Shown piece by piece: positions 26,171 through 61,819 of a DNA stretch of 64,000 bases. The notes below the pieces were generated by a model. It saw only the letters and a program-made list of their open reading frames with translations. It was not told the origin of the DNA and did no database searches. The number at the start of each line of letters is the position of its first letter. The stretch's first letter is position 1. Both the position numbers and the translations under genes were made by a program. The DNA is from Acidobacteriota bacterium (GTDB lineage: Bacteria > Acidobacteriota > Vicinamibacteria > Vicinamibacterales > 2-12-FULL-66-21), in the NCBI GenBank assembly GCA_046735335.1, contig JBKPTE010000004.1, positions 6,406 through 70,405 of the forward strand, read 5' to 3'.

Positions 26171-26215
26171 GGTACCGTTGCGTAGCGCCTCCGTTGCAGA
26201 GCGCAAGCAGACGAA

Positions 26216-26443
26216 ATGCCAGCCGATACCGTCGAGAAGACCTTCACCGTCGTCAACATGAATCGCGTGACCGGCACGGCGCGCTTCGAGATCGGCGGGC
26301 GCATCCGGCGTCTCGCGGAGCGCGGGGACGTTCTCCGCACCTCACTCGTGGGGGTGCTCGCGGCGCGTGACGGCGTGCCGCCGCCGACGGGATTCTTCAG
26401 CGGCTCCGTGGTTGTCGCGGCGCCGGACCAAGCTCAACAATAG
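26216..26443 (+). CDS. small hypothetical protein (75 aa)
   Basis: Very high third-position GC across the whole ORF. It is divergent from the 25781..26170 gene with a 45-bp gap. Confidence 0.45.
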   Translation: MPADTVEKTFTVVNMNRVTGTARFEIGGRIRRLAERGDVLRTSLVGVLAARDGVPPPTGFFSGSVVVAAPDQAQQ

Positions 26444-43764: not shown

Positions 43765-43864
43765 ACGGATCGGGAATATTTTCGCGCGCTCCTTTGTTTA
43801 CCAATGCACGGCGGCGTGGCCGTAGAGCTGTGCCTCACCAGGGTGCACCAACACAGAGGAGCGC

Positions 43865-44263
43865 ATGCGGAGCTTTCGGTTGGCGATCGCGGCAACGGCA
43901 ACGCTGCTGATCGGAGCGTGTGGAGGAGATTCGCGGCCGACGTCGCCGACACCGGCACCCGCTCCAGGCAATGTCACGACCGCGAACGTGTACATCCTGC
44001 CGGGAGCCGTTGACCTCGGACCGAACGCATTCGGAGACGAAGCGATCGTGATTTACCAAGGTGAGCGCATGCGCTGGCGGAATGCGGACTCCCTCGCGCA
44101 CAACCTGGTCGCCGACACGGCCTCGCTGCCGGAATTCGCGACAACCGGGATACTCGACCCTGGAAGTGAGCGAACGTTCGCCATGCGGACGCGGGGAACG
44201 ACCACCATCCACTGCACGATCCATCCGCAGATGACAGGGACGCTGATCGTCCGGGGAAGATAA
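43865..44263 (+). CDS. cupredoxin (type-1 copper, plastocyanin/azurin-like) lipoprotein
   Basis: The lipobox LLIGAC is present. The ligand set is His in SLAHNLV plus C-x2-H-x2-M in HCTIHPQMTG. Confidence 0.75.
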   Translation: MRSFRLAIAATATLLIGACGGDSRPTSPTPAPAPGNVTTANVYILPGAVDLGPNAFGDEAIVIYQGERMRWRNADSLAHNLVADTASLPEFATTGILDPGSERTFAMRTRGTTTIHCTIHPQMTGTLIVRGR

Positions 44264-44268
44264 CGCAG

Positions 44269-47064
44269 TCAGCGGCTCGCAGCGGCGCGGCTCGAGGACA
44301 TCGATCGGAACGGAGCGCGTTCCCATGCTCGTCCTATTGGGCGCCGGCAGGGCGACTTTACCCTAATCCGCGCGTCAATGACGCGGCAGCCTCCGCCAGG
44401 CGTCAACGCAATCACCGGATTCAGATCGAGCTCCACGATCTCCGGCACACGTGTGGCGAGGCACGACATCCGCAGCAGAGCGTCGCGGAGTGCATCGACG
44501 TCGGCGGGCGGCCGTCCGCGATGGCCCGTGAGCAGCGGGTAGCCTCGAATCTCGCGGAGAAGATCGTCGGCGTCCCGGTCGGTCAGCGGGGCGACACGAA
44601 AACGTACGTCGCCGAGCAGTTCGACGTTGATCCCGCCGATGCCGAACGCGACCAGCGGACCGAACAGCGGATCGTGCGCGATGCCGAGCAGCGTTTCGAC
44701 ACCTCCGCAGATCATCGGTTGGATCAGCACGCCTTCGACCGCGTCCTCGCCGGCCGCCTCCGCCGCGCGGGCGACGATCTGAGTGAAGGCCGTTCGGACC
44801 TCGTCGGCGGACGCGAGATTCAGGCGAACGACACCCAACTCGGTCTTGTGCGCCACCTTTGCGGACGCGAGCTTCGCGGCGACGGGGAACCCAATCACCG
44901 ATGCGAAGGCGACCGCCTCGTCGGCCGTTCGCGCCAGCTTGTGAATGGCCACCGGGAAGCCGAATGCGCTCAGCACACCCCAGATGTCGTGATCGTTGAG
45001 CCACGTCTCGCCCCGCGCCAGCGCGCGTCGACAGATCGTGCGCGCATCGCCGGCGTGCTGACCGTCGAACGCCCACGACAGGCCGGCCGGCTGCGATTTC
45101 CACGCAGCGTAGGCCGCGACCTTCCCGAGCGTCCGCGCCGCGTTCTCGGGAAAGGCGTATGTCGGGATGGTTTCGCCCCAGACGCGCAGCGGCTGCGGGT
45201 CTGTCGAATCGGACATGAGGCATGCGAGCACCGGCTTGTCCAGCACGCCGCGGCTGCGCGCAGACGCGATGCCCGCGCGAATGCCGGCGACGATGTTTTC
45301 CGATGTCGACGCATCGATCGGCGTGAAGACGACGATCAGGGCGTCCACGCCCGGCGCCCTCAGCACGGTTTCGATCGCCTGGCGGTATTCCTCCGGTCCG
45401 GCCGACGCCACGAGATCGACGGGGTTCCCGACGCTCGCGGTTGCGGGCAACGCCGCCTGCAGCTCTGTCCTCACGTCGGGACCGAGGTCGGCAATCTGAA
45501 GCCCGGCGGCGTCGCAGGCGTCGACGGCGAGAATGCCGGGGCCGCCCGCGTTCGTCACGATGGCGACCCGCCGTCCGGCGGGCAACGGTTGCGCGTCGAG
45601 GCACACGGCGACATCGAACAGCTCGTCCATCGTGTCGGCGCGAATGACGCCGGTCTGCTGGAACAGCGCGTCGACTGCGGCGTCCCTCGCCGCCAGCGCG
45701 GCGGTGTGGCTTCCTGCTGCGCGCGATCCGGCCTGCGTGCGGCCGGCCTTCAACGCGACGATCGGCTTCTCCCGTCCGATGCGCCGCGCCAGCCGGGCGA
45801 AGCGCCGCGGATTTCCAAACGATTCGAGGTAGAGCAGGATCACGCGGGTCCGTGGATCCGATTCCCAGTATTCAAGGAGATCGTTGCTGGAGACGTCCGC
45901 CTTGTTGCCGACGCTGACGAACCCCGACAGCCCGATCTGACGATGGGCCGCGAGCCGGAGAATCGCGATCCCGAGTGCGCCGCTCTGCGATGACAACGCT
46001 ATCGATCCGGCGGGAGGAGAGAGCGGCGAGAACGACGCATTCATCCGGACGGCCGGGTCCATGTTGACGATCCCCATGCAGTTCGGACCGACCATGCGCA
46101 TGCCGTAGCCGCGCACGCGGTCGGTGAGCGCGGCCTGGAGCGCGACGCCGTCGGCGCCCGTCTCGGCAAATCCCGCGGTGATGACGACGAGCGATCGAAC
46201 GCCGGCCGCGGCGCAATCGTCCACGACCGTGAGTACCGACGCCGCGGGTACCGCGACGATAGCAAGGTCGACGGCGGACGGCAGATCGCGGGCTGAATGG
46301 ACCGCCGGCAGACCTGACAGCTCGCGGGCGTTCGGATGAACCGGGACGATCTGTCCGTTGTATCCGCCCGCCTGCAGCGCCCGCAGGACGCGCGAGCCGA
46401 TCTTCGACGGATTGCGCGAAGCGCCGATCACCGCGATGGACCGCGGTTCGAGCAGCGGCCGGATGGATTCGGCGGACGCGCGCCCGCAGCGCCGCTCGGC
46501 GGCGGGGATGCCTTCAGTGGAAGGCAACAGCGTGAGCTGAAGCTCGAGGACGCCCGCTCCGGTCGCAGAGCGGATCTCGAATCCCGCTTCGCGGAAGACC
46601 TCGCGAGCCCGGGAGTCACCGGAAGCCATCGACGCGTGCAGCGTGAGGAAGCCCGCCTGTGCCGCGAGGTTGGCAACGCGCTCGAGCAGCAGCGTTGCGA
46701 TCCCCGTACGCTCGAGACGCTCGTCAACCGCGACGACGACCTGCGCGGCCGCGCCGGTCAGCGCCAGGTACGACGCGACCCCGGCGATCTCATCCCCGCT
46801 GGCGAGAGAGCGGATCGCAACGAGCGTCTGAGTGTCGCGCGCGTTCACGGGCCGCGCCTCGCGATCGATCTGCGAGGGGCCTGAACCGTCCCCCGCAAGA
46901 AAGCGCCGGCATCGCGATTCGAGCGAGCGATCGCGGATGAAACGCGCAACGCCTGGCCCGTCCTTCGTCGTCGATGGTCTGATGGTGACGCGGCCGCCGT
47001 CGGGCAGAATCAGAGGCGACGAGTCCCGGGAGGTCACCGCCGGGGATTGGGGTACGGTGTGCAT
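44269..47064 (-). CDS. GNAT acetyltransferase fused to ADP-forming acyl-CoA synthetase (CoA-binding, ligase-CoA and ATP-grasp domains)
   Basis: ORF 44269..47568. The start at ATG 47064 is chosen because upstream codons overlap the divergent activator gene. It has an N-terminal GNAT fold, then IAVIGASRNPSKIG, MVGPNCMG, the catalytic-His loop AAGSHTAALA, and a C-terminal ATP-grasp. Confidence 0.85.
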   Translation of the reverse strand: MHTVPQSPAVTSRDSSPLILPDGGRVTIRPSTTKDGPGVARFIRDRSLESRCRRFLAGDGSGPSQIDREARPVNARDTQTLVAIRSLASGDEIAGVASYLALTGAAAQVVVAVDERLERTGIATLLLERVANLAAQAGFLTLHASMASGDSRAREVFREAGFEIRSATGAGVLELQLTLLPSTEGIPAAERRCGRASAESIRPLLEPRSIAVIGASRNPSKIGSRVLRALQAGGYNGQIVPVHPNARELSGLPAVHSARDLPSAVDLAIVAVPAASVLTVVDDCAAAGVRSLVVITAGFAETGADGVALQAALTDRVRGYGMRMVGPNCMGIVNMDPAVRMNASFSPLSPPAGSIALSSQSGALGIAILRLAAHRQIGLSGFVSVGNKADVSSNDLLEYWESDPRTRVILLYLESFGNPRRFARLARRIGREKPIVALKAGRTQAGSRAAGSHTAALAARDAAVDALFQQTGVIRADTMDELFDVAVCLDAQPLPAGRRVAIVTNAGGPGILAVDACDAAGLQIADLGPDVRTELQAALPATASVGNPVDLVASAGPEEYRQAIETVLRAPGVDALIVVFTPIDASTSENIVAGIRAGIASARSRGVLDKPVLACLMSDSTDPQPLRVWGETIPTYAFPENAARTLGKVAAYAAWKSQPAGLSWAFDGQHAGDARTICRRALARGETWLNDHDIWGVLSAFGFPVAIHKLARTADEAVAFASVIGFPVAAKLASAKVAHKTELGVVRLNLASADEVRTAFTQIVARAAEAAGEDAVEGVLIQPMICGGVETLLGIAHDPLFGPLVAFGIGGINVELLGDVRFRVAPLTDRDADDLLREIRGYPLLTGHRGRPPADVDALRDALLRMSCLATRVPEIVELDLNPVIALTPGGGCRVIDARIRVKSPCRRPIGRAWERAPFRSMSSSRAAASR

Positions 47065-47077
47065 GTATGGCGCGGTC

Positions 47078-47093
47078 AGCAGAAGACGTGCCA
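47078..47093 (-). promoter_or_regulatory. sigma-54 promoter match TGGCAC-gtctt-CTGCt
   Basis: Read on the minus strand. GG-N10-GC spacing is exact. The -12 GC lies 14 nt before ATG 47064. Confidence 0.55.
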
Positions 47094-47113
47094 CACCCCG
47101 CACGTACGGGTAT

Positions 47114-47153
47114 GCGGAAATCTTCGCGTCGCTGGGAACATTTCCGCGTCGCT
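47114..47153. promoter_or_regulatory. repeat-rich candidate enhancer (UAS) between divergent sigma-54 promoters
   Basis: Inverted repeat GCGGAAAT (47114-47121) / ATTTCCGC (47140-47147). Direct repeats TTCGCGTCGCT (47123-47133) and TCCGCGTCGCT (47143-47153) lie 20 bp apart. Confidence 0.35.
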
Positions 47154-47219
47154 CCGGACCTCCTGGCGGATCGACCGTCGAGATTCCGTGTGTTATGGCG
47201 GGAAACCGTCGGTCCCTCG

Positions 47220-47235
47220 TGGCACGCGGGTTGCC
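47220..47235 (+). promoter_or_regulatory. sigma-54 promoter match TGGCAC-gcggg-TTGCc
   Basis: Near-perfect consensus, 80 nt upstream of ATG 47314 of the sigma-54 activator gene. Confidence 0.65.
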
Positions 47236-47313
47236 CCTTCCCTGATAGCGATCCGTTCGGGATTCGGGGCGAGGCCGCTGACGCCATGCGGCGACACGTA
47301 ACCTGAGGACACC

Positions 47314-48365
<1,052 letters not shown>

Positions 48366-48369
<4 letters not shown>

Positions 48370-49292
48370 TCGTCGACCCGCGGGCGATCGCGGTCCCAGG
48401 ACTGCAGGACCGAGATATAAGCGTTGCGATCGAATCGAGTCCGGTCCCCGCCCAGAGCTGCACAGCCTTTGATGCCGGCAAGCGACTGGCAGCCGTGCGC
48501 CTCGCACCAGTGTTCGAGCTGCGTCCGCAGGTACGTCAGCCGCGACGGACCGTGGCGGAGCAGCGTCGAGGCGACCTGGACGGCGTCCGCGCCAGCCATC
48601 ACGGCCTTGACGACATCAATCGGTTCGTGCACGCCGCCGCTCAGCGCCAGCCACATGCGGACGCGGCCGGAGAGGATGGCGATTGCATGAAGGCGGAGCA
48701 GGAGATCGGACGAATTCGACAACTGCACCCGGACGGTCGTGCCGCGGATCTCGGGATCGATGTCCGCCTGATAGAAGCGATTGAAGACGACGAGGCCGTT
48801 GACGCCCATGCGCTCGAGCCGCATCGCCAGGTTCGGCACCGACGAATAGAACGGCGAGAGCTTGACCGCGACCGGAATCGAGACCGATTCCTTCACGACC
48901 GCCACGATGTCGATCAGGCGCTGTTCGATGGCCTGTCCGCTCTCCGTCGGGCTGGTGGCGACGTGGTAGAAGTTCAGCTCGAGCGCGTTCGCGCCGGCGC
49001 GCTCGAGCGCGCGTGCGTACTGCAGCCAGCCTTCAGGCGTCGTCCCGTTGAGAGACGCGATAATCGGCACTCCGACGTGTCGCTTGACCCGAAGGAGATG
49101 CTCGACGTACTGGCCCGGAGACGGGGCCGCGCTCCGGAGAATCTGCTCTTCGAACAACGAGTGCATCACGATCGCGGCGGCGCCGGCATCCTCGAGCCTC
49201 TGGACCATGTCCAGGTCGGCGCTCATGGGCGACGCGCCGCAGACGATCGGATGCGCCAACTCGAGACCGAGATACGTTGTCTGGAGGTCCAT
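48366..49292 (-). CDS. dihydroorotate dehydrogenase-like FMN TIM-barrel protein
   Basis: ORF 48366..50036 from ATG 49292 (308 aa). It shows [15 protein letters not shown] and [26 protein letters not shown], typical of the class-1 DHOD/DPD fold. Confidence 0.8.
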
Positions 49293-49294
49293 GT

Positions 49295-49915
49295 TCACCT
49301 GACGGTCGGCGTCACCGGACGATCTTCGAAGAGATAACCCAGCCGCACTCCGACACTCGTGATGGAATCGGTGGACCCGTTGCGGTGCACGAGCACGACG
49401 GAGGCTTCGGGGCGGATGCTGATGTTCCGATGCCTGATCAGATCGACGCCCGCGCTGAACCGCCACGCCGGATCGGTGAACGTCCGCATGCTGGTGGCTC
49501 CTCCTGCCGGTTCGAGCATGCGCATGCGGTAGAAGTCGGATACGTGCGCCGTCCGCGTGTCGATGCTCGCGCGATACAGGCCGAACGCCGCGCCGACGTA
49601 GGGCGTCGTCCGACGCCTGGCGATTACGTTGACGAGCGCGCCGACGTCGGCGCCGACGCCGTTCGTGTTGCTGCCGCGCGCGAACCAGCCGCCGCGGGCT
49701 TCGAGCGTCACCCATCGGGTAATGCTCCATCCCGCCATGCCGGCGACCACCGGAGCGGTTTCCGACGATGCGAAGGCGGTACCGATTGAGCCGCCCAGTT
49801 CCGTTCCGCGTGCCGCGAAATTCGATTGGTCTGGCGTCTGCGCGACGAGCGGCGCGGCCGTCAGGCCCGTCATCAGCGCGACGGATGCGATGCGACGACC
49901 GAGACCATTGTTCAT
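49295..49915 (-). CDS. small outer-membrane beta-barrel protein
   Basis: A signal peptide is followed by alternating-hydrophobicity strands and a C-terminal ...VGVRLGYLF barrel-like motif. It sits 2 nt upstream of the DHOD-like gene, so the two are a likely operon. Confidence 0.7.
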   Translation of the reverse strand: MNNGLGRRIASVALMTGLTAAPLVAQTPDQSNFAARGTELGGSIGTAFASSETAPVVAGMAGWSITRWVTLEARGGWFARGSNTNGVGADVGALVNVIARRRTTPYVGAAFGLYRASIDTRTAHVSDFYRMRMLEPAGGATSMRTFTDPAWRFSAGVDLIRHRNISIRPEASVVLVHRNGSTDSITSVGVRLGYLFEDRPVTPTVR

Positions 49916-49936
49916 AGGGCCCTCCGCCGTTCACGC

Positions 49937-49952
49937 AGCAGACCCCGTACCA
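49937..49952 (-). promoter_or_regulatory. sigma-54 promoter match TGGTAC-ggggt-CTGCt
   Basis: Read on the minus strand. GG-N10-GC spacing is exact. It lies 22 nt before ATG 49915, with GGAGGG in between. Confidence 0.5.
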
Positions 49953-50003
49953 ACGGCGCAGGGCAGATCCGTCTCGGGTCGCGCGACGTATCAGCGGCGA
50001 TCG

Positions 50004-50015
50004 CCGGATTTCCGG
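50004..50015. promoter_or_regulatory. palindrome CCGGA-TT-TCCGG between divergent sigma-54 promoters (candidate UAS)
   Basis: Read directly. It is flanked by the palindrome GGCGATCGCC (49996-50005). Confidence 0.3.
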
Positions 50016-50044
50016 CAGCGGCGCCTCGCAAAGCAAGGCACGCG

Positions 50045-50060
50045 TGGCACGCTCCGTGCT
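50045..50060 (+). promoter_or_regulatory. sigma-54 promoter match TGGCAC-gctcc-GTGCt
   Basis: GG-N10-GC spacing is exact. It lies about 110 nt upstream of ATG 50172. Confidence 0.5.
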
Positions 50061-50171
50061 CGGCTACATCACGAAGACTCCCAAGACAAGGCTGTGCGCC
50101 GGCTCGACTCGCGTGGAGGGCGTTGCGGAGCGCGTTCTGGCCGTCCACGTCGGGCAAGATAGTGAGAGGGA

Positions 50172-51044
50172 ATGCCCATGCTTCAGCCGCCGGCCGCGCT
50201 CGCGCCTGAACAGGACGCGGGACCCCGCAGCATTGCGCCCGCAGTCGTCTTCGACAAGGTGTCGTTCGCCTTCGACGATCACGTCGTCCTGTCGGATGTC
50301 AGCTTTGCGATTCCTGATGGCAGCATGAAGGTCCTCCTCGGCGCCAGCGGCGCAGGGAAGTCGATCGTTCTCAAGCTGATTCTCGGGCTGCTGCGGCCGG
50401 ACAACGGAGCGATTTGGGTGAAAGGGCAGAGAATCGACACGCTGCCCGAGCGCGATCTCATTCGGGCGAGAGCCGACATCGGAATGCTGTTCCAGGGGAG
50501 CGCGTTGTTCGACTCGCTCACGGTCGCGGAGAACGTCGGCTACAGACTGTACGAGGAAACGAGGATGCCGGCGGACCAGGTGCGCCGACGCGTCGAAGAG
50601 GTGCTGGCGTTCGTCGGGCTGAGCGAGCACATCGACCGAATGCCCGCTGAGCTGTCCGGAGGCCAACGGCGGCGGGTCGCGATTGCGCGCGCGATGATCG
50701 GCAGACCCAGCCTGCTGCTGTTCGACGACCCGACCACCGGACTCGATCCGATTATCGCGACCACCGTGAACAACGAAATCGTCAAGCTGCGCGACCTGGA
50801 ACACGCCACGTCGATCGTCGTCACTCACCAGATCCGCGACGCCTACTACGTGGCCACGCACGAGGCCGTGCGGCACAACGGCACCGTGATCATTCGTCCG
50901 ATTGGCGAGGAACGCGCACGGCAGGTGGGCTTCATGGTCCTGCACGACGCGCGCATCTACTTCGAAGGAACAGCGGGAGAACTTCTTGCGTCCAGCGACA
51001 GCTACTTGCGCCGTTTCCTCTTCAGGACGCTGCCGCCCTGGTAG
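50172..51044 (+). CDS. ABC transporter ATP-binding protein (MlaF-like), with no permease gene adjacent
   Basis: Walker A GASGAGKS, signature LSGGQRRR and Walker B LLLFDDPTTGLD are present. The 3' end overlaps the convergent PFOR gene by 23 nt. Confidence 0.85.
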   Translation: MPMLQPPAALAPEQDAGPRSIAPAVVFDKVSFAFDDHVVLSDVSFAIPDGSMKVLLGASGAGKSIVLKLILGLLRPDNGAIWVKGQRIDTLPERDLIRARADIGMLFQGSALFDSLTVAENVGYRLYEETRMPADQVRRRVEEVLAFVGLSEHIDRMPAELSGGQRRRVAIARAMIGRPSLLLFDDPTTGLDPIIATTVNNEIVKLRDLEHATSIVVTHQIRDAYYVATHEAVRHNGTVIIRPIGEERARQVGFMVLHDARIYFEGTAGELLASSDSYLRRFLFRTLPPW

Positions 51045-54000
51045 GGGCCAGGAGATTCTCTCCCTGACGCGTAACGGGCGAGCCGCTCGCACAGCCCCCG
51101 GTCCGACCTTCGCCGCGCGAAGGTCCCGGCCAACGTTCACTCATGTTCTTGTAGAGGGACCATCGCTGATGAATGTCCTGCTGCGCGAGCGCGAGCAGCC
51201 GCCGCGCGTCTTCGGGCCTGGTCTGCGCGAGCATCCTGTAACGGGTCTCGTTGTAGGCGTAAGCCTCCAGCGGAATGCTCGGCGCCTGCGAATCCAGGAC
51301 GAACTCGGGAAGCTGCCGACCCGCTGCGGCGGGTCTGTACCGGTAGAGCGGCCAGTGCCCGCAATCGGCCGCGAGCTTCTGCTGGCGCATGCCCAGACGC
51401 ATGTCGATCCCGTGGGCGATGCAATGGCCGTAGGCGATGATCAGTGAAGGTCCGTCGTACGCCTCGGCCTCGACGAACGCATCCAGTGTCTGCTGGGCCG
51501 ACGCGCCCATCGCGATCTGGGCCACGTATACGTTCCCGTACGCGATGGCCATCAAACCCAGATCCTTCTTGCGGCTCTGCTTGCCGGCAGCCGCAAACTT
51601 CGCGACGCCCGCGCGCGGCGTGGCTTTCGACGCCTGGCCCCCGGTGTTCGAGTAGACCTCGGTGTCGAGCACCAGGATGTTGACGTTCCGTCCGGAGGCG
51701 ATCACGTGGTCGAGGCCGCCGTACCCGATGTCGTACGCCCAGCCGTCGCCGCCAACAATCCAGACGCTCTTGCGTACGAAGTGCGACGCAAGCGTGCGGA
51801 GCCGGCGGGCGCGGGGATCGTCGATTCCGTCGAGGGCGCGTTCGAGTGCCGTCACCCGCGTGCGTTGCGCATCCACCTCGTCGCTCGTCGCCTGCGATGC
51901 GTCAATGATCTCCGCGGCGAGGCCTGGCTCGAGATCGGGCGCAAGATCGCGAAGGAGCCGGTCGGCCTCTTCGCGATGGGCGTCCAGCGAGAGTCGGTAA
52001 CCCAGACCGAACTCTGCATTGTCCTCGAACAGAGAATTGGCCCATGCGGGTCCGCGCCCCTCCGCATTGATCGACCACGGCGTCGTCGGCAGGTTGCCGC
52101 CATAGATCGAGGAACAGCCGGTCGCATTCGCGACCAGCAGGCGGTCGCCGAAGAGTTGCGTGAGGAGGCGCAGGTACGGCGTCTCGCCGCAGCCGGCACA
52201 CGCTCCCGAGTACTCGAACAGCGGCGTGAGGTATTGAACTCCCCGCACGAGCGTTGCGTCGACGCGACCCGGCGCGCTGGCCGGCAGCGTCTCGAAAAAG
52301 GCAAGATTGCGGCGCTCGCGCTCCAGCAATGGCGACTTCGCTTCCATCTCGATTGCGCGGGCGGCTTCCGGTTCGCCGCTCCGGACCGGGCATACCTCCA
52401 CACAGAGCTCGCAGCCGGTGCAGTCTTCGACGGCGACCTGCAACGTGAACCGGCGATTGGGAAATCCTCGACCAACCAACGGCGCCGATGCGAACCCGTG
52501 GGGTGAGCGGGCCAGGAACGAGTCCTCGTACTGGCGAGCACGAATCGCCGCGTGCGGACACACCATCACGCAGTTGCCACACTGGATGCAGATCTCGGGT
52601 CTCCACACCGGCACCGTATCCGAGATGTTCCGCTTCTCCCAGCGCGAAGTGCCGGATGGGTACGTTCCGTCTGCCGGCAGGGCACTGACGGGAAGATCGT
52701 CGCCGCGCCCGGCGGCCATCACCGCAGTGACCTCCTTGACGAACGCGGGTGCGTCTTCGGAGACCAGGGCGGCGGCTTCGCGCGTGCTGCTCACCGCTGC
52801 GCCGAGTTGAACGGCGTGCAGGTTCTCGAGCGCACGATCGATGGCGGCAAAGTTCTTGTCGACGAGGTCGCCGCCCTTCCGGCCGTACGTCGCGACGACC
52901 GCTTCCTTGATTCGCGTGATCGCGTCGGCCCGAGGCAGCACGCCCGAAATGGCAAAGAAGCAGGTCTGCATGACCGTGTTGATCCGCCCCGGCATGCCGG
53001 CCTCGAGCGCCACACGGTCGGCATCGATGGCATACAGGCGTATGTGCTTGCGGATCAGCGTGTCCTGAACGGAAGCGGGCAGCTCGTCCCAGATCTCGTC
53101 GGGCCCGAACACGGTGTTGAGCAGGAACACCGCGCCATCGACAGCCTCCCGCAGCATGTCGATCCGATCGACGAATTGAAACTGATGGCACGCGATGAAT
53201 TGCGCGCGCTGGACCAGGTATGTGGACCGAATCGGGCGCGGCCCGAAGCGCAAGTGCGACGTCGTTCGCGACCCGGATTTCTTGGAGTCGTAGACGAAGA
53301 AGCCCTGGGCGTACGCGGCCGTGTCCTCGCCGATGATCTTGATTGAGTTCTTGTTGGCTCCTACCGTCCCGTCCGACCCGAGGCCGTAGAAAATGCAGCC
53401 CACGACGTCCGGGCTCTCGATCACGAACTCCGGGTCGTACTCGAGGCTGGTGTGCGACAGATCATCACGGATGCCGACGGTGAAGTGGTTGGCCGGCGCT
53501 GGCGACGCCAGGTTGTCGAAGACGGCCTTGACCATGGCGGGCGTGAATTCCTTCGACCCGAGGCCGTATCGGCCGCCGACGATGCGGGGCAGCGCCGGGC
53601 GGCGGTTCGCGGCGACGGCCTCGGCGAAGGCTGCCACGACATCCAGGTACAGCGGCTCGCCGGACGCGCCCGGCTCCTTCGTTCGATCGAGCACCGCGAT
53701 CGTATTCGCCGTCGGCGGAATGGCGTCGACCAAATCAGCGGCCGAGAAAGGCCTGAACAGGTGCACCTGCACGAGACCGACCTTCTCGCCGCGCTCGTTC
53801 AGGTACGCGACGGTTTCGCGGGCGGTTTCGACGCCCGAGCCCATGAGCACGACCACGCGCTCCGCGTCAGGCGCGCCCGCGTAATCGAACAATTTGTACT
53901 GACGGCCGGTCAGCCCCGCGAAGCGGTCCATCGTCCGCTGCAGCTCCGCCGGCACCGCCGCATAGAACGTGTTCACCGTCTCGCGCGCCTGGAAGTACAC

Positions 54001-54672
54001 GTCCGGGTTCTGCGCCACGCCGCGGACGAACGGATGCTCCGGGTCCAGCGCGCGCCGGCGGTGCGCGAACACCAGCTCGTCATCGATCATCGCCTTCACC
54101 GCGTCGTCGGCGAGGATCTCTATCTTGCTGACTTCGTGAGACGTCCTGAACCCGTCGAAGAAGTGAACGAATGGAATGCGGGACGCGAGTGTCGCGCTGT
54201 GGGCGACGAGGGCCAGGTCGTGCGCCTCCTGCACCGAGCTCGAACAGAGCATGCCCCATCCGGTCATCCGCGCGGCCATCACGTCCGAGTGATCTCCGAA
54301 GATCGAAAGCGCCTGCGTAGCAAGGGCGCGCGCGGCCACATGGAAGACCGTCGGCGTGAGCTCCCCGGCGATCTTGAACATGTTCGGGATCATGAGGAGC
54401 AGGCCCTGCGATGCTGTGAACGTCGTCGTCAGCGCGCCGGTCTGCAGCGCGCCATGGATCGCGCCAGCGGCCCCTCCTTCGCTCTGCATCTCGACGACGT
54501 GCGGCACGCTGCCCCAGATGTTCTTGCGTCCTTCGGCCGCCCATTGGTCCGCCAGCTCGCCCATCGTGGAGGAGGGGGTGATCGGGTAGATCGCGCAGAT
54601 CTCATTCACGCGGTATGCGATCGAGGCTGCCGCCTCATTGCCGTCGAGCGTCTTGACGTGCGCGGGTGCCAT
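51022..54672 (-). CDS. nifJ: pyruvate:ferredoxin (flavodoxin) oxidoreductase, single-polypeptide type
   Basis: ORF 51022..55056 from ATG 54672 (1216 aa). It starts MAPAHVKTLDGNEAAASIAYRVNEICAIYPITPSS, carries ferredoxin motifs CIQCGNCVMVCP and CTGCELCVEVCP, and has the TPP motif GGDGWAYDIG. Confidence 0.9.
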   Translation of the reverse strand: MAPAHVKTLDGNEAAASIAYRVNEICAIYPITPSSTMGELADQWAAEGRKNIWGSVPHVVEMQSEGGAAGAIHGALQTGALTTTFTASQGLLLMIPNMFKIAGELTPTVFHVAARALATQALSIFGDHSDVMAARMTGWGMLCSSSVQEAHDLALVAHSATLASRIPFVHFFDGFRTSHEVSKIEILADDAVKAMIDDELVFAHRRRALDPEHPFVRGVAQNPDVYFQARETVNTFYAAVPAELQRTMDRFAGLTGRQYKLFDYAGAPDAERVVVLMGSGVETARETVAYLNERGEKVGLVQVHLFRPFSAADLVDAIPPTANTIAVLDRTKEPGASGEPLYLDVVAAFAEAVAANRRPALPRIVGGRYGLGSKEFTPAMVKAVFDNLASPAPANHFTVGIRDDLSHTSLEYDPEFVIESPDVVGCIFYGLGSDGTVGANKNSIKIIGEDTAAYAQGFFVYDSKKSGSRTTSHLRFGPRPIRSTYLVQRAQFIACHQFQFVDRIDMLREAVDGAVFLLNTVFGPDEIWDELPASVQDTLIRKHIRLYAIDADRVALEAGMPGRINTVMQTCFFAISGVLPRADAITRIKEAVVATYGRKGGDLVDKNFAAIDRALENLHAVQLGAAVSSTREAAALVSEDAPAFVKEVTAVMAAGRGDDLPVSALPADGTYPSGTSRWEKRNISDTVPVWRPEICIQCGNCVMVCPHAAIRARQYEDSFLARSPHGFASAPLVGRGFPNRRFTLQVAVEDCTGCELCVEVCPVRSGEPEAARAIEMEAKSPLLERERRNLAFFETLPASAPGRVDATLVRGVQYLTPLFEYSGACAGCGETPYLRLLTQLFGDRLLVANATGCSSIYGGNLPTTPWSINAEGRGPAWANSLFEDNAEFGLGYRLSLDAHREEADRLLRDLAPDLEPGLAAEIIDASQATSDEVDAQRTRVTALERALDGIDDPRARRLRTLASHFVRKSVWIVGGDGWAYDIGYGGLDHVIASGRNVNILVLDTEVYSNTGGQASKATPRAGVAKFAAAGKQSRKKDLGLMAIAYGNVYVAQIAMGASAQQTLDAFVEAEAYDGPSLIIAYGHCIAHGIDMRLGMRQQKLAADCGHWPLYRYRPAAAGRQLPEFVLDSQAPSIPLEAYAYNETRYRMLAQTRPEDARRLLALAQQDIHQRWSLYKNMSERWPGPSRGEGRTGGCASGSPVTRQGENLLAPTRAAAS

Positions 54673-54683
54673 GTGAGTGCCTG

Positions 54684-56270
54684 CTATGTCGCTGCGACGT
54701 CGACCGGTTCGGGCATCATCGCGATCGCACCGCACGGGCACTGGTCGAAGCAGATCGCGCAGCCCGTACACCTCGTCAAGTCGTACTCGTAGCGGAGACC
54801 GGGCCCGAGCTTCAGCACCGCGTGCTCGGGACACGCCGAGTAACAGCCGTCGCATTCGAAACAGTTTCCGCACGAGAGACAGCGCTGTGCTTCGAACCGC
54901 GCCGCCTCGGGATCGAGCCCATCGACCACTTCGTCGAACGTCCGCCGCCGTCGCGGCAGGTCGATGGTCCCTTGTGCGCGCCTCTTGGCGTCCGCCTGAT
55001 ACCAGAGGCGAAGCGTCTCGAAGGATGCGATCTCGTGCTTGCCGGCCCGTACCCATGCCCGATCGCGGAGGAACGCGTCGATGAATCGGGCGGCCTTCTT
55101 CCCGTGTCCGATCGCCGTCGTAACCGTGCGCTCGTACGGCACCATGTCGCCGCCCGCGAAGACCCCACGGCAGCCCGTCTGCATGTCGGGCCCCACGACC
55201 ACCGTCCCGTCCTTCTTGAATTGCAGTCCGGGGACCTGTCTCAGAAATGCGGTGTCCGTATCCTGCCCCAACGCGAGGATGAGAGAGTCGACCTCGAGCT
55301 CTTCGAATTCGCCGGTCGGCTGCGGATACCGGTTCTCGTCGAGCCGCATGATCTCGACGCGCACGCGCGAGCCGGTGATGTTCTTGATCGTGCGGAGCCA
55401 GTGAATCTTCACGCCTTCGTCGAGCGCGTCATCCGCTTCGAAGGCATGCGCCGGCATCTCGGCGCGGGTGCGCCGGTAGATGATGACGGGTTCGGCCCCG
55501 AGGCGTCGTGCCGTCCGCGCAGCATCCATCGCCGTGTTGCCGCCGCCATAGATGGCGACGCGCCGGCCGATTCGCGGCGATTCGGTTCCGCGCTCCACTT
55601 GTTCCAGGAACTGAAGTGCGTCGAAGATCTTCCCCGCATCCTGTGCGGGAATCTCCTGGCGCCTGCTGAGATGCGCGCCGACCGCCAGAAACACCGCGTC
55701 GAATCGGCCATCGGCCTTCTCTCGAGCGAGATCGGTCACCTTGTGATTCAGCTCGAACCGCACCCCCGTCGCCTTGATGCGGTCGATTTCGCGATCGAGC
55801 ACCTCTCGCGGAAGTCGATATTTCGGAATCCCGAAATGCATCATGCCGCCGGCTACGGGCCCGGCGTCGCGAACGACGACCTCGTGGCCGCGCAACGTGA
55901 GATGCCAGGCGGCCGAAAGACCGCTCGGGCCCGCGCCGACGACGAGAACCCGCCTGCCTGACGGAGGCGCGCTGCACTCAATCGTCCAGCCGTGCGCCAG
56001 GGCCAAATCGCCGAGGAAGCGTTCGACCGCATGGATTCCGACGGCATCGTCGACTTTGGTGCGATTGCAGGCGTCTTCGCACGGGTGATAACAGACGCGG
56101 CCGTGCACGGCTGGCAGAGGGTTGTCACGAACGATGACTTCCCACGCCTGGCGGTATCGTCCGCCCTGCGCTTCCGCCAGCCATGCCTGCACGTTTTCGC
56201 CCGCAGGGCAGGCGTCGTTGCACGGAGGCAGGCGATCGATGTACAGCGGGCGCAGCGTGCGGACTGGCAT
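54684..56270 (-). CDS. GltD-like NAD(P)H:FAD oxidoreductase with C-terminal 2x[4Fe-4S] ferredoxin domain
   Basis: It has an N-terminal Cys cluster (CNDACPAGE...CYHPCEDACNR), Rossmann motifs VVGAGPSGLSAA and IYGGGNTAMDAA, and the C-terminal motifs CLSCGNCFECDGCYSACP and CTGCAICFDQCPCGAI. It sits 11 nt upstream of PFOR. Confidence 0.85.
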   Translation of the reverse strand: MPVRTLRPLYIDRLPPCNDACPAGENVQAWLAEAQGGRYRQAWEVIVRDNPLPAVHGRVCYHPCEDACNRTKVDDAVGIHAVERFLGDLALAHGWTIECSAPPSGRRVLVVGAGPSGLSAAWHLTLRGHEVVVRDAGPVAGGMMHFGIPKYRLPREVLDREIDRIKATGVRFELNHKVTDLAREKADGRFDAVFLAVGAHLSRRQEIPAQDAGKIFDALQFLEQVERGTESPRIGRRVAIYGGGNTAMDAARTARRLGAEPVIIYRRTRAEMPAHAFEADDALDEGVKIHWLRTIKNITGSRVRVEIMRLDENRYPQPTGEFEELEVDSLILALGQDTDTAFLRQVPGLQFKKDGTVVVGPDMQTGCRGVFAGGDMVPYERTVTTAIGHGKKAARFIDAFLRDRAWVRAGKHEIASFETLRLWYQADAKRRAQGTIDLPRRRRTFDEVVDGLDPEAARFEAQRCLSCGNCFECDGCYSACPEHAVLKLGPGLRYEYDLTRCTGCAICFDQCPCGAIAMMPEPVDVAAT

Positions 56271-56299
56271 GCGAATGCTCGTTCGACCGGAGAAGGTGG

Positions 56300-56315
56300 A
56301 GCAACGAGCACGCCA
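56300..56315 (-). promoter_or_regulatory. sigma-54 promoter match TGGCGT-gctcg-TTGCt
   Basis: Read on the minus strand. GG-N10-GC spacing is exact. It lies 30 nt before ATG 56270. Confidence 0.55.
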
Positions 56316-56398
56316 GCACGGCAGCTTTCAAAGCGCGCCAGAAACACTCTGAACGTCAGGCGCGGCGCCGCCGTCAGCGGGTTATTTTGCGCGGTGAT

Positions 56399-56412
56399 GC
56401 GGAAAAATCCGC
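56399..56412. promoter_or_regulatory. palindrome GCGGA-AAAA-TCCGC about 90 bp upstream of the 56315 sigma-54 promoter (candidate UAS)
   Basis: Read directly. It shares the GCGGAAA half-site with 47114-47120. Confidence 0.35.
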
Positions 56413-56541
56413 TGCCCTCCACTACCGAGCGCAGACGGCCGACCGGCACTGCCGGGAATTCGCCGCTCGTCGACTGCGTGCGCCGCTCTCGAGTTGGTAT
56501 CGCCATTGCGCGCGCGTCCGTGTTCCTCGAAGGAGGCTGTG

Positions 56542-56758
56542 ATGTCCCGCATCCTCACGCTCCACGACTTCCTGCGCGACGCTCACGTTCCGTACGCAGT
56601 CGTGCCCCGCCGTCCGGCGTTCACAGCGCAGCAGGAAGCCGCCGCGACCCACATTCCGGCCCGCGGTGCCCGAACCCCCATCCCTTCTCCTCCTGGGCTC
56701 CGCGATCAGTTCCCTCGCGCTGGCGCGGCTTCGGCGCACGGGCGGCCGTGCGTCATGA
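56542..56758 (+). pseudogene. chimeric remnant: YbaK/aminoacyl-tRNA-editing-like N-terminus joined out of frame to a PEP-CTERM tail
   Basis: ATG 56542 follows AGGAGG and encodes MSRILTLHDFLRDAHVPYAVVPRRPAFTAQQEAAATHIPARG. From 56666 the +1 frame reads VPEPPSLLLLGSAISSLALARLRRTGGRAS-stop, a PEP-CTERM anchor. Confidence 0.5.
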
Positions 56759-57973
56759 GGCCTTCCTCTCGGTCGATGCACGACGGCGCGACTGGAGAGA
56801 GGAGTACAACGCGTTCCTCAGCGCGACATCCCGCGGATCGCCTGTGAGGCTCGTGCCCATCTGGCTCGTCACGTACGCGTAACCGAGTCTGGCGCTCGGA
56901 TCGGCGAAGCCGAGCGATCCGCCGGCTCCTGGCGATCCGAACGAGCTGGGGCTGCCGAACGGCCACGCTGTGCTCGGTTTCATGAACCCGAGCGAGAACT
57001 GCACGTCCCCGTGCAGGCATTCGTCGTAGAACCCGCGCGTCGGTGCGATGGCCGGCGCGGACAGCAGATCGAGCGTCTCCCGACGCAGCCTCAGCTCGCG
57101 GCCGCCGGTCGCAAACACGCTGTAGGCGTGCGCGATGGCTTCGGCCGTGCCGACGGCGCCGCCTGACGGCACTTCGAAGTTGCGCGCGTAGACACGCTCT
57201 GCGTCGTGCGGCAGCTCCGACCCGCGGAGCGAGCGGGCGATATTGGAGCGCTTGTTCATGATTTCCAAGGTGAAACGAAGGGGGAAGCCGAACAACATGT
57301 CGATCGGGCGCGGCCGGGCGATTGTCGCGAGGCGTGCGTCGGGGACGGTCTCCGGCAGTCTGATGTAGAGGTCGAGTCCGAGCGGCGTTGCGATCTCGTT
57401 CTGGAAGAATTGGCCGAGACTGCGATGCTGCGGATCGATGCGGCGCAGCAGCTCGCTCTCGTAATAGCCGAGCGTGATGCCGTGATACGCCTGCCGTGTT
57501 CCCGGTTCCCATGCCGGCTTCTGACGGGCCAGCACGACGGCCAGCCGATCCAGATCCGCGACGACACTCCGATCGACGGGCACGTCGAGCGCGAAGAGGC
57601 CAGCCTGATGCGCGAGCAGTTGCCGGACGGTGATGCGTTCTTTCCCCTGCTGCGCGAACTCCGGCCAATACGTGCAGACGGGCTCCTCGTAGTCGAGCCA
57701 CCCGCGAGAATGCGCGAGCGCGAGCGTCATCGCCGCGAGGCCCTTCGTCGCCGAGTGGACGATCACCATGGTGTCCTGTTCCCACGGATCGCCGGTCGCC
57801 TTGTTGCGCACACCGCCCCAGAGGTCGACGATCTTCTCGCCTTCGTGATAGGCACAGCAGGCGCCACCCAGCTCGGCGCGGCGGCGGAAGTTGTCGGCAA
57901 ACTCTTCACGAACGCGCTCGAATCCGGGACCGACGTGTCCCTCGAAGATGCAGCCCGATTTCAGCGTGCCCAT
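56753..57973 (-). CDS. serine hydrolase of the beta-lactamase/class-C esterase family
   Basis: ORF 56753..58480 from ATG 57973 behind GGAGG (406 aa). The SxxK motif (HSATKG) is present. Confidence 0.85.
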   Translation of the reverse strand: MGTLKSGCIFEGHVGPGFERVREEFADNFRRRAELGGACCAYHEGEKIVDLWGGVRNKATGDPWEQDTMVIVHSATKGLAAMTLALAHSRGWLDYEEPVCTYWPEFAQQGKERITVRQLLAHQAGLFALDVPVDRSVVADLDRLAVVLARQKPAWEPGTRQAYHGITLGYYESELLRRIDPQHRSLGQFFQNEIATPLGLDLYIRLPETVPDARLATIARPRPIDMLFGFPLRFTLEIMNKRSNIARSLRGSELPHDAERVYARNFEVPSGGAVGTAEAIAHAYSVFATGGRELRLRRETLDLLSAPAIAPTRGFYDECLHGDVQFSLGFMKPSTAWPFGSPSSFGSPGAGGSLGFADPSARLGYAYVTSQMGTSLTGDPRDVALRNALYSSLQSRRRASTERKAS

Positions 57974-58157
57974 GATGCCTCCTCGCGCACGCTCGTGCGA
58001 TGCGTTTTGTGTTGCCGTTCTCGTTGACGAAGCAGCAAACGCTGTTGCACGATACGGGCCGGTCACACCGCCATCGGATTTGTGCGATGCCGTTCGAAGT
58101 GATCTGGCGCTGCCGGGATTCCGCCGCGGCGCCGCCGTCTTCAGATTGCAGCGAACC

Positions 58158-60406: not shown

Positions 60407-60634
60407 CGGTAGCGCCGACAGGCGCGGCGGGAAGATCGAGCGGATGTGCAGCTCACACCTTCGGAACTGCAATCAGTGATCCCGCCCGCCGGAGCGCCGG
60501 GAGCACGAGCGGCGGGACTGCCGGAATTCCGACGCGCGAACGCACCGTCCGCGTGATCGGCTGGGAAAGTGCGCGATTTCGGGTCCGCGCTTCGTGGCCG
60601 GTTGCTTGCTGTTGGGTTATGCGGCAGGTGCATC

Positions 60635-61819
60635 ATGCATGCGAGGGTCTTCGTCTGTGCAGCGCTCGCCGCGCTCGTGTCCGTCACGCTCATGAGCTGC
60701 AACGGGCGCTCGCCCACGGAACCCACGAACTGCTCCTACACGATTTCTCCCGCCACGCTCACGATCGACAGCGAGGGTGGAACCGGTACGGTCAACGTGA
60801 CCGCGCCCGCCGGCTGTTCCTGGACGGCCGCGGCGAGCGCGTCCTGGATCAGCATCACCGCCGGCGGGACGGGCAGCGGGCCGGGCACGGTCACGTATTC
60901 CGTCGGGCCGAACGCGGACCCATCGTCGCGGACTGCAACGGTCACCGTCGCCGGGCAAGGGCACGCGGTGACGCAGCACGGTCGATCGCCTGCGGTATGC
61001 ACGTACGACCTCTCGCCCGGAAGCGCAGAGTTCAACAAGGACGGCGGCTCGGGAAGCTTCACCGTCACCGCGCCCGCCGAGTGTGTATGGACGGCGCGCA
61101 GCGACGCGTCATGGATCGTGGTCGGCGGCGACGGCCAGGGCACCGGGACGAGCACGGTGTCCTATGGCGTATCGCGCCACGCCGACATTCCCGAACGGAC
61201 CGCCACCATTGCGGTTGGCGAGCGACGCTTCACGGTCCGGCAGTCCGGGGATGTGGGCTTGTGCCAGTATTCGGTCTCTCCGGTCTTCCTGAGCCCGTGC
61301 ATGGCAGGAACGACCGTCACCGCGTCAATCACGACGCCGGTGGCGACTTGCCCCTGGACCGCGACGGCTGGCGCGGCGTGGCTCAGCGTCGGCAGATCAT
61401 CCGGAGCGGGCTCGGCAACGCTCTCGATCAGCATGCCGGACAACTATGATGCGCCGCGCGAGGGGATCGTCATGATCCGATGGCCGACGGCGACGGCGGG
61501 GCAGAACATTCGGGTCGCGCAGGCGGGATGCCGATATGCCGTGAGCCGCACCGCCATCAGCCTCGCCGCGGGCGGCGGCACGGCGACGTTCGACGTCATT
61601 CAGCAAAGCGACCCGACGCAGTGCGGCGGAGCGACGCAGGACAGGTGCCTGTGGACGGCGCGATCGGACGTGCCGTGGATAACGATCACCAGCAGCATGC
61701 CCCGCGCTGGCGACCAGCCGGTCGCATTCAACGTCGCGGCGAACGACAGCACAGCGGCGCGAACGGGGAGGATCACCGTGCGCGACAAGGTCGTGACGGT
61801 CACCCAGTCGGGGAAGTGA
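60635..61819 (+). CDS. lipoprotein with four tandem BACON-like all-beta repeats
   Basis: The lipobox LMSC is followed by four ~95-aa repeats of the pattern C-x-Y-x-(I/L/V)-SP...C-x-WTA-x-S...W(I/L)...G-x-G...R-x-(A/G)-x-I-x-V...V-x-Q-x-G. Confidence 0.75.
   Translation: MHARVFVCAALAALVSVTLMSCNGRSPTEPTNCSYTISPATLTIDSEGGTGTVNVTAPAGCSWTAAASASWISITAGGTGSGPGTVTYSVGPNADPSSRTATVTVAGQGHAVTQHGRSPAVCTYDLSPGSAEFNKDGGSGSFTVTAPAECVWTARSDASWIVVGGDGQGTGTSTVSYGVSRHADIPERTATIAVGERRFTVRQSGDVGLCQYSVSPVFLSPCMAGTTVTASITTPVATCPWTATAGAAWLSVGRSSGAGSATLSISMPDNYDAPREGIVMIRWPTATAGQNIRVAQAGCRYAVSRTAISLAAGGGTATFDVIQQSDPTQCGGATQDRCLWTARSDVPWITITSSMPRAGDQPVAFNVAANDSTAARTGRITVRDKVVTVTQSGK

Follow-up and report, generated by a model that had tools for sequence, protein, structure and literature searches.

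Probable sigma-54 promoters in three divergent pairs, and a candidate activator without a sensory domain, at a pyruvate and acyl-CoA gene block of a Vicinamibacterales bacterium

A stretch of 64,000 nucleotides from a bacterium of the Vicinamibacterales (Acidobacteriota; contig JBKPTE010000004.1, positions 6,406 to 70,405; hereafter the window) contains a 9-kb block of genes for pyruvate and acyl-CoA metabolism. The subject of this work is the three intergenic regions of the block, located at 47065-47313, 49916-50171 and 56271-56541 (776 bp together), with the sigma-54 (-24/-12) promoter matches found in them and the activator gene that lies in the block. Genes were assigned by Pfam and NCBIfam profile searches with curated cut-offs, and both agreed with the identities which an earlier note had given to the genes of the block.

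In detail, the block encodes a GNAT/nucleoside diphosphate (NDP)-forming acyl-CoA synthetase fusion, a sigma-54 enhancer-binding protein (the activator), an operon of an outer-membrane beta-barrel protein (OMP) and a dihydroorotate-dehydrogenase-like (DHOD-like) flavoprotein, an ABC-type ATPase, and an operon of a GltD-like Fe-S flavoprotein and a pyruvate:ferredoxin (flavodoxin) oxidoreductase (PFOR) (table 1). PFOR is a full-length match to its model, with positions 2-1167 covered, and the OMP coordinates are identical in an outside gene caller. For the synthetase, the start at ATG 47064 is backed by the alignment of N-termini and by an outside gene caller that gives 931 aa; another caller gives 909 aa.

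The synthetase scores 494.6 bits against the ADP-forming acetyl-CoA synthetase equivalog TIGR02717, which is below the cut-off of 567.15, with all domains present. It retains the SHTAALA phosphohistidine-type motif, and formation of acetate and ATP by this protein is therefore plausible. The fusion may instead act as a Pat-like acetyltransferase. Pat-type protein lysine acetyltransferases likewise join a GNAT domain to a domain resembling NDP-forming synthetases; here the GNAT domain is N-terminal. The catalytic histidine kept in the synthetase argues for a working enzyme and not for a Pat-type acetyltransferase.

Table 1. Genes, sigma-54 promoter matches and candidate boxes of the block, and outlying box-promoter pairs of the window
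Feature	Position	Strand	Score (bits)	Sequence	Remarks
GNAT/NDP-forming acyl-CoA synthetase fusion, 931 aa	44269-47064	-			GNAT N-terminal; then CoA-binding, ligase-CoA and ATP-grasp domains
Sigma-54 enhancer-binding protein (activator), 351 aa	47314-48369	+			AAA+ and Fis-type helix-turn-helix (HTH)
DHOD-like flavoprotein	48366-49298	-	355.5 (cut-off 303)		NF005741
OMP, 206 aa	49295-49915	-	29.8		PF13505; first gene of DHOD-like operon
ABC-type ATPase	50172-51044	+			Pfam, NCBIfam; orphan, without adjacent permease gene
PFOR, 1216 aa	51022-54672	-	1759.5 (cut-off 911.35)		TIGR02176
GltD-like NAD(P)-binding Fe-S flavoprotein	54684-56270	-	729.2 (cut-off 516)		NF009410; first gene of PFOR operon
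Short open reading frame (ORF)	56542-56847	+		GAAGGAGG	strong ribosome-binding site (sequence given)
Activator promoter	47220-47235	+	15.6	TGGCACgcgggTTGCC	predicted start ~47246; leader ~68 nt
Synthetase promoter	47078-47093	-	16.1	TGGCACgtcttCTGCT	predicted leader ~3 nt if start is ATG 47064
OMP/DHOD-like operon promoter	49937-49952	-	15.0	TGGTACggggtCTGCT	leader ~11 nt, begins at GGAGGG ribosome-binding site
ABC ATPase promoter	50045-50060	+	14.5	TGGCACgctccGTGCT	leader ~100 nt
GltD-like/PFOR operon promoter	56300-56315	-	14.5	TGGCGTgctcgTTGCT	leader ~19 nt
Possible sixth promoter	56495-56510	+	11.8	TGGTATcgccaTTGCG	~30 nt before short ORF
Two class I boxes	47114-47147		12.4 and 8.8	GCGGAAATCTTCGC, GGGAACATTTCCGC	between divergent activator and synthetase promoters
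Class II-like box	47197-47210		10.2	GGCGGGAAACCGTC	adjoins activator promoter; position conserved in alignment
Class II box	50003-50016		18.8	GCCGGATTTCCGGC	between OMP-DHOD and ABC promoters; best class II match in window
Class I box	56399-56412		14.5	GCGGAAAAATCCGC	84 bp upstream of GltD-like/PFOR promoter, 83 bp from 56495 match; second-best class I match in window
CBS+DUF2267 gene, probable outlying member	7220-8185	+			
Promoter match of CBS+DUF2267 gene	7175-7190	+	13.9	TGGTTCgctcgTTGCT	30 nt before gene
Class I box	7031-7044			CGGGAATTTTTCCC	best class I box of window; 144 bp upstream of 7175 match
BACON-domain lipoprotein gene	60636-61819	+			starts at ATG 60636
Sigma-54-like match of BACON gene	60595-60610	+	11.2	TGGCCGgttgcTTGCT	
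Class II box	60520-60533		17.1	GCCGGAATTCCGAC	62 bp upstream of 60595 match
Sigma-54-like match	169-184	-	13.2	CGGTACgtcggTTGCT	points off left window edge; target gene outside window
Class II box	269-282			GCCGGAGATCCGGC	~85 bp upstream of 169 match

Five sigma-54 promoter matches lie in the three regions. They were found exactly as the earlier note had quoted them, in letters, position and strand; as it had also described, all five are intergenic and point into the adjacent gene, and the promoter-gene distances it gave are correct within 1 nt. Each departs from the consensus TGGCAC-N5-TTGCW by one or two mismatches with GG and GC intact, and the GG-N10-GC spacing, which the note had called invariant, holds in 5/5. 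PFOR and the synthetase are both located behind such promoters, and so is the activator gene itself, 79 nt from its promoter to its ATG. No sigma-70-consensus promoter was found in the block.

The arrangement is that of three divergent back-to-back pairs, where in each intergenic region a minus-strand promoter lies by the left gene and a plus-strand promoter by the right gene. The third pair is completed by the match at 56495, which was not listed in the earlier note and is divergent from the GltD-like/PFOR promoter, weaker than the other five and probably a sixth sigma-54 promoter. The short ORF behind it is protein-like over its first ~42 residues only and runs into the 3′ end of a convergent beta-lactamase-family gene; it is probably a truncated gene remnant. 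A YbaK-like origin of this ORF was tested, and the sole PDB match was an uncharacterised protein (E = 0.09).

The synthetase promoter ends 13 nt upstream of the ATG, which predicts a nearly leaderless mRNA. Leaderless mRNAs as a habit of the lineage were rejected, since the conserved N-termini start 45-57 nt downstream and not 10-13 nt, as crude gene calls put several of them; the ~3-nt leader is kept only by the synthetase gene of the window. A universal-stress-protein (USP) gene precedes the synthetase in relatives, and from the comparison it seems that this gene, placed between promoter and synthetase, was deleted in the window.

Matches were scored with an RpoN (sigma-54) weight matrix which was fixed beforehand and is our own approximation of the published consensus TGGCACG-N4-TTGCW. 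The five sites are the five best matches of the 64-kb window on both strands (14.5-16.1 bits). At a threshold of at least 14 bits, six matches were seen against 0.8-1.0 expected from order-1 and order-3 Markov sequences; all six are intergenic and none is coding, and the coding DNA of the window contains no match of at least 12 bits. Within the 776 intergenic bp, a model trained on the three regions predicts 0.014 matches of this strength, and five are present (P for at least five ~5e-12). The earlier note had proposed a comparison of match density between intergenic and coding DNA. It was run on the available sequence, that is, the window and 421 kb from relatives, and intergenic DNA is strongly enriched: in the relatives, matches of at least 14 bits occur at 0.57 per kb intergenic versus 0.019 per kb coding, a ~30-fold difference. 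Unweighted counting of the consensus gave three matches with at most one mismatch, where 1.1 were expected.

Conservation was followed in three sets of loci. The closest relatives of the activator (L001-L027, 61-76% identity) are all metagenome-assembled genomes of Vicinamibacterales or Acidobacteriota; more distant activators make up L028-L080, and 80 metagenome loci with a GltD-like orthologue make up L081-L160. The activator protein of the window is itself identical on seven metagenome contigs, with the surrounding DNA 99.9% identical. TGGCAC/T-N5-TTGCC stands before the activator operon in 11 loci, and even the unusual C that follows GC is kept there; the intergenic DNA around this promoter is only ~40% conserved. 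The USP-synthetase operons of L001, L004 and L005 have an equivalent sigma-54 promoter (15.0-16.1 bits), and the DHOD-like genes in L001 and L005 have weaker matches upstream. A sigma-54 match (TGGCATagcggTTGCC) also lies 48 nt upstream of PFOR in L017, 4.5 kb from the activator orthologue. Before the GltD-like/PFOR operon, TGGCTC/TGGTCC-N5-TTGCT is found in L081-L083, the three closest of the 80 loci (74-77% identity). More distant GltD-like loci generally have no sigma-54 match upstream, and the sigma-54 control of this operon is thus lineage-specific. Judged by matrix score, position and conservation, the five matches are very probably real RpoN promoters.

The same gene families, namely PFOR, synthetase, DHOD-like and USP, recur beside the activator orthologue with sigma-54 promoters in several relatives. 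Behind sigma-54 promoters beside the activator, relatives have USPs, multihaem cytochromes and a radical-SAM protein.

In many of the 80 loci, on contigs of 35-73% G+C, GltD-like, PFOR and DHOD-like genes stand together as a conserved operon of three genes, and most of these loci have no sigma-54 promoter before it. This conserved synteny links the two operons of the block functionally. The same three families are associated in Propionibacterium, where PFOR is flanked by GltD-like and DHOD-like genes and an Nfn-like role was proposed (PMC7650540). In the window, on the contrary, the DHOD-like gene is parted from PFOR by the ABC ATPase and OMP genes and has its own sigma-54 promoter, which fits a need for co-expression with PFOR. 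The DHOD-like protein of the window is only ~41-48% identical to all others and may be a paralogue.

The activator gene of the block encodes, as the earlier note had described, a sigma-54 activator; its GAFTGA loop is intact. With the AAA+ domain beginning at residue 13, the protein has no N-terminal sensory domain, and such a domain is also absent from all full-length orthologues. The domains found are PF00158 (Sigma54_activat, 228 bits), PF25601 and PF02954 (HTH_8), and the sequence contains the Walker A motif GESGTGKE. The protein falls below every NCBIfam equivalog cut-off. Its best score is to PrdR (346 bits), followed by NifA (TIGR01817; 343 bits, cut-off 528.85), where only model positions 193-530 are covered, so that no GAF domain is present. 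For the PspF equivalogs the scores are 255.5 bits versus 443.55 (TIGR02974) and 219 versus 529 (NF008622).

A cysteine motif follows directly on the AAA+ lid and is conserved across the 26 full-length orthologues that were aligned, with an invariant part ending in -x-C-x6-C. The spacing is C-X6-C-X-C-X6-C in relatives and ENAC-X8-C-X6-C in the activator of the window. Immediately upstream of the activator, a NifU-domain gene of 65-75 aa was called in 23 cases in the 27 closest loci. In the closest group this gene follows the sigma-54 promoter, and it appears to be co-transcribed with the activator. Both the cysteine motif and the NifU neighbor are absent from the more distant activators (L028-L080). 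This pairing of a cysteine cluster with an Fe-S carrier of its own suggests that the protein may respond to oxygen, redox or Fe-S status.

Further regulators are found around the orthologues. In L002-L009 and L021, a PAS histidine kinase, a single-domain response regulator and an NtrC-type response-regulator activator have their genes directly upstream of the NifU-activator operon, and some of these kinase/response-regulator operons have class I boxes (see below) in front. This arrangement, which is absent from the window, suggests an activator cascade in these relatives. In L013-L027 (group B), a paralogous activator gene is followed directly downstream by one to three sigma-54 promoters (15-17 bits), behind which small unknown proteins and multihaem c-type cytochromes are encoded; these promoters often have class II-like boxes 71-97 bp upstream.

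Candidate enhancer boxes were defined from conserved positions in the alignment of activator-upstream regions, and box matrices were built from the sites of relatives only and then scanned over the window. Two classes of 14-bp palindrome were obtained, both candidate activator-binding sites, which lie 40-145 bp upstream of sigma-54 promoters. Class I is a 14-bp palindrome with consensus GGGGAATATTCCCC, present in the alignment in two copies at about -105 and -130. Class II (consensus GCCGGAATTCCGGC) consists of the class I half-sites placed 2 bp closer together, and a CCGGAAAACCGG-type copy stands directly beside the activator promoter. Strict palindrome enumeration in 21 promoter-upstream regions (half-sites of 4-5 nt, spacer of 0-8 nt) gave only weak enrichment for CCGG-N4-CCGG, and the boxes are clear only from the orthologous alignment. 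The top 8-mer TCGAGAAG was rejected as a regulatory site, since it belongs to the conserved end of the coding sequence of the upstream NtrC-type gene. The 10-mer CGGAWWTCCG, searched with one mismatch allowed, matched coding DNA in many places and was too unspecific.

Class I matches of at least 12 bits are four distinct ones in the window (7031, 56399, 43771 and 47133), where about one was expected. The top class II matches (50003, 60520, 269 and 58112) are all intergenic. So are the class I matches at 7031, 56399 and 47133, and these three, like the one at 50003, stand 40-145 bp upstream of sigma-54 matches. From the start of the class II box at 50003 the distances to the TGG elements of the two flanking promoters, both downstream of it, are 42 nt and 64 nt; in the same region no class I box was found, the best class I score being 0.2 bits. 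In the relatives L081, L083 and L084/85 the best class I match of each locus is in the region upstream of the GltD-like gene, in L081 and L083 at 80-110 bp from the sigma-54 match. Class II boxes of at least 13.4 bits occur 42-137 bp upstream of ~13 promoters outside the training set (95th percentile of controls, 13.6 bits), including those of PFOR in L017 and of USP-synthetase in L001.

The two classes differ in their distribution. Class I boxes are confined to loci of the own subgroup of the window's activator and are absent from those of the paralogue, whereas class II boxes also accompany promoters beside the paralogous subgroup. Both activator subgroups stand in tandem in L010. In our reading, class I boxes would belong to this activator and class II boxes to the paralogue, with both overlapping on one functional gene set.

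Box-plus-promoter pairs were also found before the CBS+DUF2267 gene, before the BACON lipoprotein gene and at 169, near the left end of the window. The unit is thus not confined to the 9-kb block, as the earlier note had supposed. The pair at 7031-7190, at a distance of 40 kb from the block, probably belongs to the same regulon as an outlier. For the BACON lipoprotein, the signal peptide and lipobox place the true start at 60636, later than the ORF start.

Other boxes and matches of the window stand alone. A class I box at 43771-43784 is located 95 bp before a cupredoxin-like lipoprotein gene (43865-44263, +), and no GG-N10-GC promoter was found before this gene; the ORF at 43835-44326 (-) is spurious. 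A class II box at 58112-58125 (GCCGGGATTCCGCC, 13.1 bits) lies between a beta-lactamase-family gene (start ~57973, -) and an amidohydrolase gene (58146, +). Near it there is no canonical sigma-54 match, only TGCAACagcgtTTGCT, which lacks GG. A sigma-54 match at 26206-26221 (-; TGGCATttcgtCTGCT, 14.5 bits) is 36 nt before a 129-aa ORF (25781-26170, -) with no Pfam match and beside a PEP-CTERM protein gene (26464-27126). It has no class I or II box upstream and probably belongs to the regulon of a different activator.

Elsewhere in the window are a GH94 protein of 2843 aa which resembles cyclic beta-1,2-glucan synthase (10832-19363, +), two Crp/Fnr-family regulator genes (19711-20349, -; 22792-23202, +) and a hemerythrin-domain gene (5676-6203, -). 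Rfam families had no match anywhere in the window.

The explanation which we consider best as a whole, and rather probable, is that of real RpoN promoters in three divergent pairs, served by the activator and a paralogue, with a fermentative output. Sigma-54 holoenzyme would bind the -24/-12 elements as a closed complex and start only after ATP-driven remodelling by an AAA+ enhancer-binding protein on upstream sites. Class I boxes would serve the activator/synthetase and GltD-like/PFOR pairs and class II the OMP-DHOD/ABC pair. The activator, with its gene behind one of the five promoters, likely switches on its own expression, and its activity may depend on oxygen, redox or Fe-S status or on a partner protein in trans. 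That these promoters are controlled by activators of this family is moderately probable; a low-oxygen or redox signal is proposed tentatively.

As to the output, PFOR would turn pyruvate into acetyl-CoA, the GltD-like and DHOD-like Fe-S flavoproteins would dispose of the electrons, and the GNAT-fused synthetase would make acetate and ATP from acetyl-CoA or tune the pathway by acetylation. Together these would form a low-oxygen fermentative switch. The USP and multihaem-cytochrome genes in relatives, with the CBS+DUF2267 and hemerythrin genes of the window, point to such a programme. In Acidobacterium capsulatum, nanoxia induces USPs and acetate formation (PMC11636273); sigma-54 is not mentioned there.

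Several observations weigh against this explanation. The sigma-54 matrix is only an approximation of the published consensus, and unweighted counting with at most two mismatches gives 29 matches versus 20.8 expected, which is not significant. The gene rpoN was not seen in the window, and a search for the RpoN box in the 160 fetched loci returned one gammaproteobacterial (Nevskia) copy only; we infer its presence in the genome from the GAFTGA-bearing activators. The predicted leaders of ~3 nt (synthetase) and ~11 nt (OMP) are unusually tight, and the ABC promoter is without comparative support, as no orthologue of the ABC gene was found. Moreover, the window's activator lacks the second cysteine of the motif, which is also missing in L017, and no NifU-like gene was found in the window; Fe-S-based sensing may therefore be altered or lost in this protein. 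The 5-4-5 geometry of class I boxes also fits Crp/Fnr-type regulators, and the window encodes two of these. One good class I box, that at 43771 (13.7 bits), has no neighboring sigma-54 promoter. The weakness of mismatch counting, together with the fact that a degenerate pattern fitting all five sites was chosen after the fact, could indicate chance occurrences of a GC-rich pattern with no function in a genome of 66% G+C. Since mismatch counting is weak, the significance rests on the weighting of GG and GC, clustering, intergenic position and conservation and not on the raw count. The probability of ~5e-12, the lack of matches of at least 12 bits in coding DNA and the sites kept before orthologous genes within poorly conserved intergenic DNA leave chance strongly disfavoured, to the point of being hardly credible.

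If the promoters are real, the question is what acts on them. The earlier claim that the five matches make up one regulon stands in part: the shared class I boxes link activator/synthetase and GltD-like/PFOR, whereas the OMP-DHOD/ABC pair has only a strong class II box. A single strict regulon, where the block's own activator has sites upstream of each of the five promoters and no other activator is needed, would agree with the position of its gene in the middle of the block, behind one of these promoters, and with the GGAA/TTCC-type palindromes of all three intergenic regions. PFOR has a class I box in the clade of the window and a class II box in L017, so one protein might read both. However, the half-site spacing differs by 2 bp, the OMP-DHOD/ABC region has no class I box, class I occurs only in the activator's subgroup while class II is shared with the paralogous one, and the tandem of L010 makes a second activator in this genome plausible. 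We consider the strict regulon somewhat unlikely; the block is most likely run by the activator and a paralogue as one functional stimulon. The boxes could also be sites of a regulator which is not an enhancer-binding protein, for instance an oxygen or redox sensor of the Crp/Fnr family, that modulates sigma-54 or overlapping sigma-70 promoters, with the enhancer sites located elsewhere. The 5-4-5 14-bp palindrome is the geometry of FNR-type sites, the two Crp/Fnr-family genes are at hand, the boxes at 43771 and 58112 have no sigma-54 match nearby, and the class II box at the activator promoter, 13-27 nt upstream of TGG, is too close for a normal enhancer. Against this, most boxes stand 60-145 bp from sigma-54 matches, as is usual for enhancers, the occurrence of class I boxes follows the activator subgroup and the block has no sigma-70-type consensus promoter, all of which renders this possibility improbable. 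Real promoters under several unrelated activators, clustered by gene order only, appear very improbable. Relatives do encode several activators at these loci, including the NtrC-type response regulator with its PAS kinase, and the match at 26206 stands without a box beside the PEP-CTERM gene. On the other hand, the shared box classes tie the promoters together, that of the activator gene included, PFOR, synthetase, DHOD-like and USP genes recur beside the activator orthologue with sigma-54 promoters, and DHOD-like, GltD-like and PFOR genes are a conserved unit.

This class of promoter and its dependence on an activator are textbook knowledge. The earlier note had described sigma-54 control of a PFOR and ADP-forming synthetase module as no textbook regulon. 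For PFOR, such control has a precedent in Desulfovibrio: in Desulfovibrio vulgaris Hildenborough, the por-pta-ack operon for lactate utilisation has a sigma-54 promoter and is activated by LurR (PMC6456213). Similarly to the block studied here, that operon has PFOR first, followed by the steps from acetyl-CoA to acetate, and an adjacently encoded activator binds repeated 16-bp sites upstream. LurR is, however, a two-component response regulator with a cognate kinase, whereas the activator of the window has no receiver or sensory domain. In addition, Pta and AckA stand there in place of the NDP-forming synthetase, and the phylum, the binding motif and the divergent-pair architecture differ.

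Enhancer-binding proteins without a regulatory domain are known from PspF and HrpR/HrpS, where control is exerted via the expression level or a partner in trans. These proteins share with the window's activator the composition of AAA+ and HTH only, by which control would have to take one of these two routes here as well, and a gene located beside a divergent sigma-54 promoter. They differ in that no pspA-like or hrpV-like partner gene is found here and the targets are metabolic, and the cysteine motif and NifU neighbor have no counterpart in PspF. Rhizobial NifA is oxygen-sensitive and has a cysteine motif that spans the last part of its central domain and the linker. The conserved cysteine cluster between the AAA+ core and the HTH, and the link to Fe-S and low-oxygen metabolism, are common to both; on the contrary, the activator family described here has no GAF domain and another cysteine spacing, and there are no nif genes and no TGT-N10-ACA site at this locus. 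OrpR of Desulfovibrio, a sigma-54 activator containing an Fe-S cluster, was proposed as a redox sensor and controls two divergent sigma-54 operons (PMC8359166). The proposed redox sensing by a cysteine-ligated Fe-S cluster in an enhancer-binding protein and the divergent sigma-54 operons are the points of likeness. The cluster of OrpR lies in an N-terminal PAS domain which is absent from the window's activator, and cluster binding in the latter is only presumed. The most novel element of the locus is the sensor-less activator type with a cysteine motif and a NifU partner. What is gained is a wider scope and a variant of the activator; the principle is not new.

Bacteria of the Vicinamibacterales, which rank with the most abundant ones in soil, are usually regarded as aerobic. 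To our knowledge, almost nothing is known on the regulation of transcription in Acidobacteriota. A search of the literature on sigma-54 regulons in this phylum found nothing specific, and a recent cross-phylum survey of sigma-54 does not mention Acidobacteriota. At its most far-reaching, the proposal would be one of an undescribed activator subfamily, seen here only in Vicinamibacterales, which senses oxygen, redox or Fe-S status directly via a NifU-loaded cysteine cluster at the junction of AAA+ domain and linker. With a paralogue reading the same half-sites at another spacing, it would bring abundant, supposedly aerobic Acidobacteria of soil to ferment pyruvate via PFOR, to respire with multihaem cytochromes and to make stress proteins as oxygen runs out. 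In this full form we regard the proposal as speculative and unlikely. A cysteine cluster with a NifU partner would be a possible new route of signal sensing for a sigma-54 activator. If the explanation holds, the poorly understood trio of GltD-like, PFOR and DHOD-like proteins would be placed under a defined physiological signal, and the locus would offer a compact model of how pyruvate fermentation is switched on, with promoters, candidate boxes, one small activator and a metabolic output.

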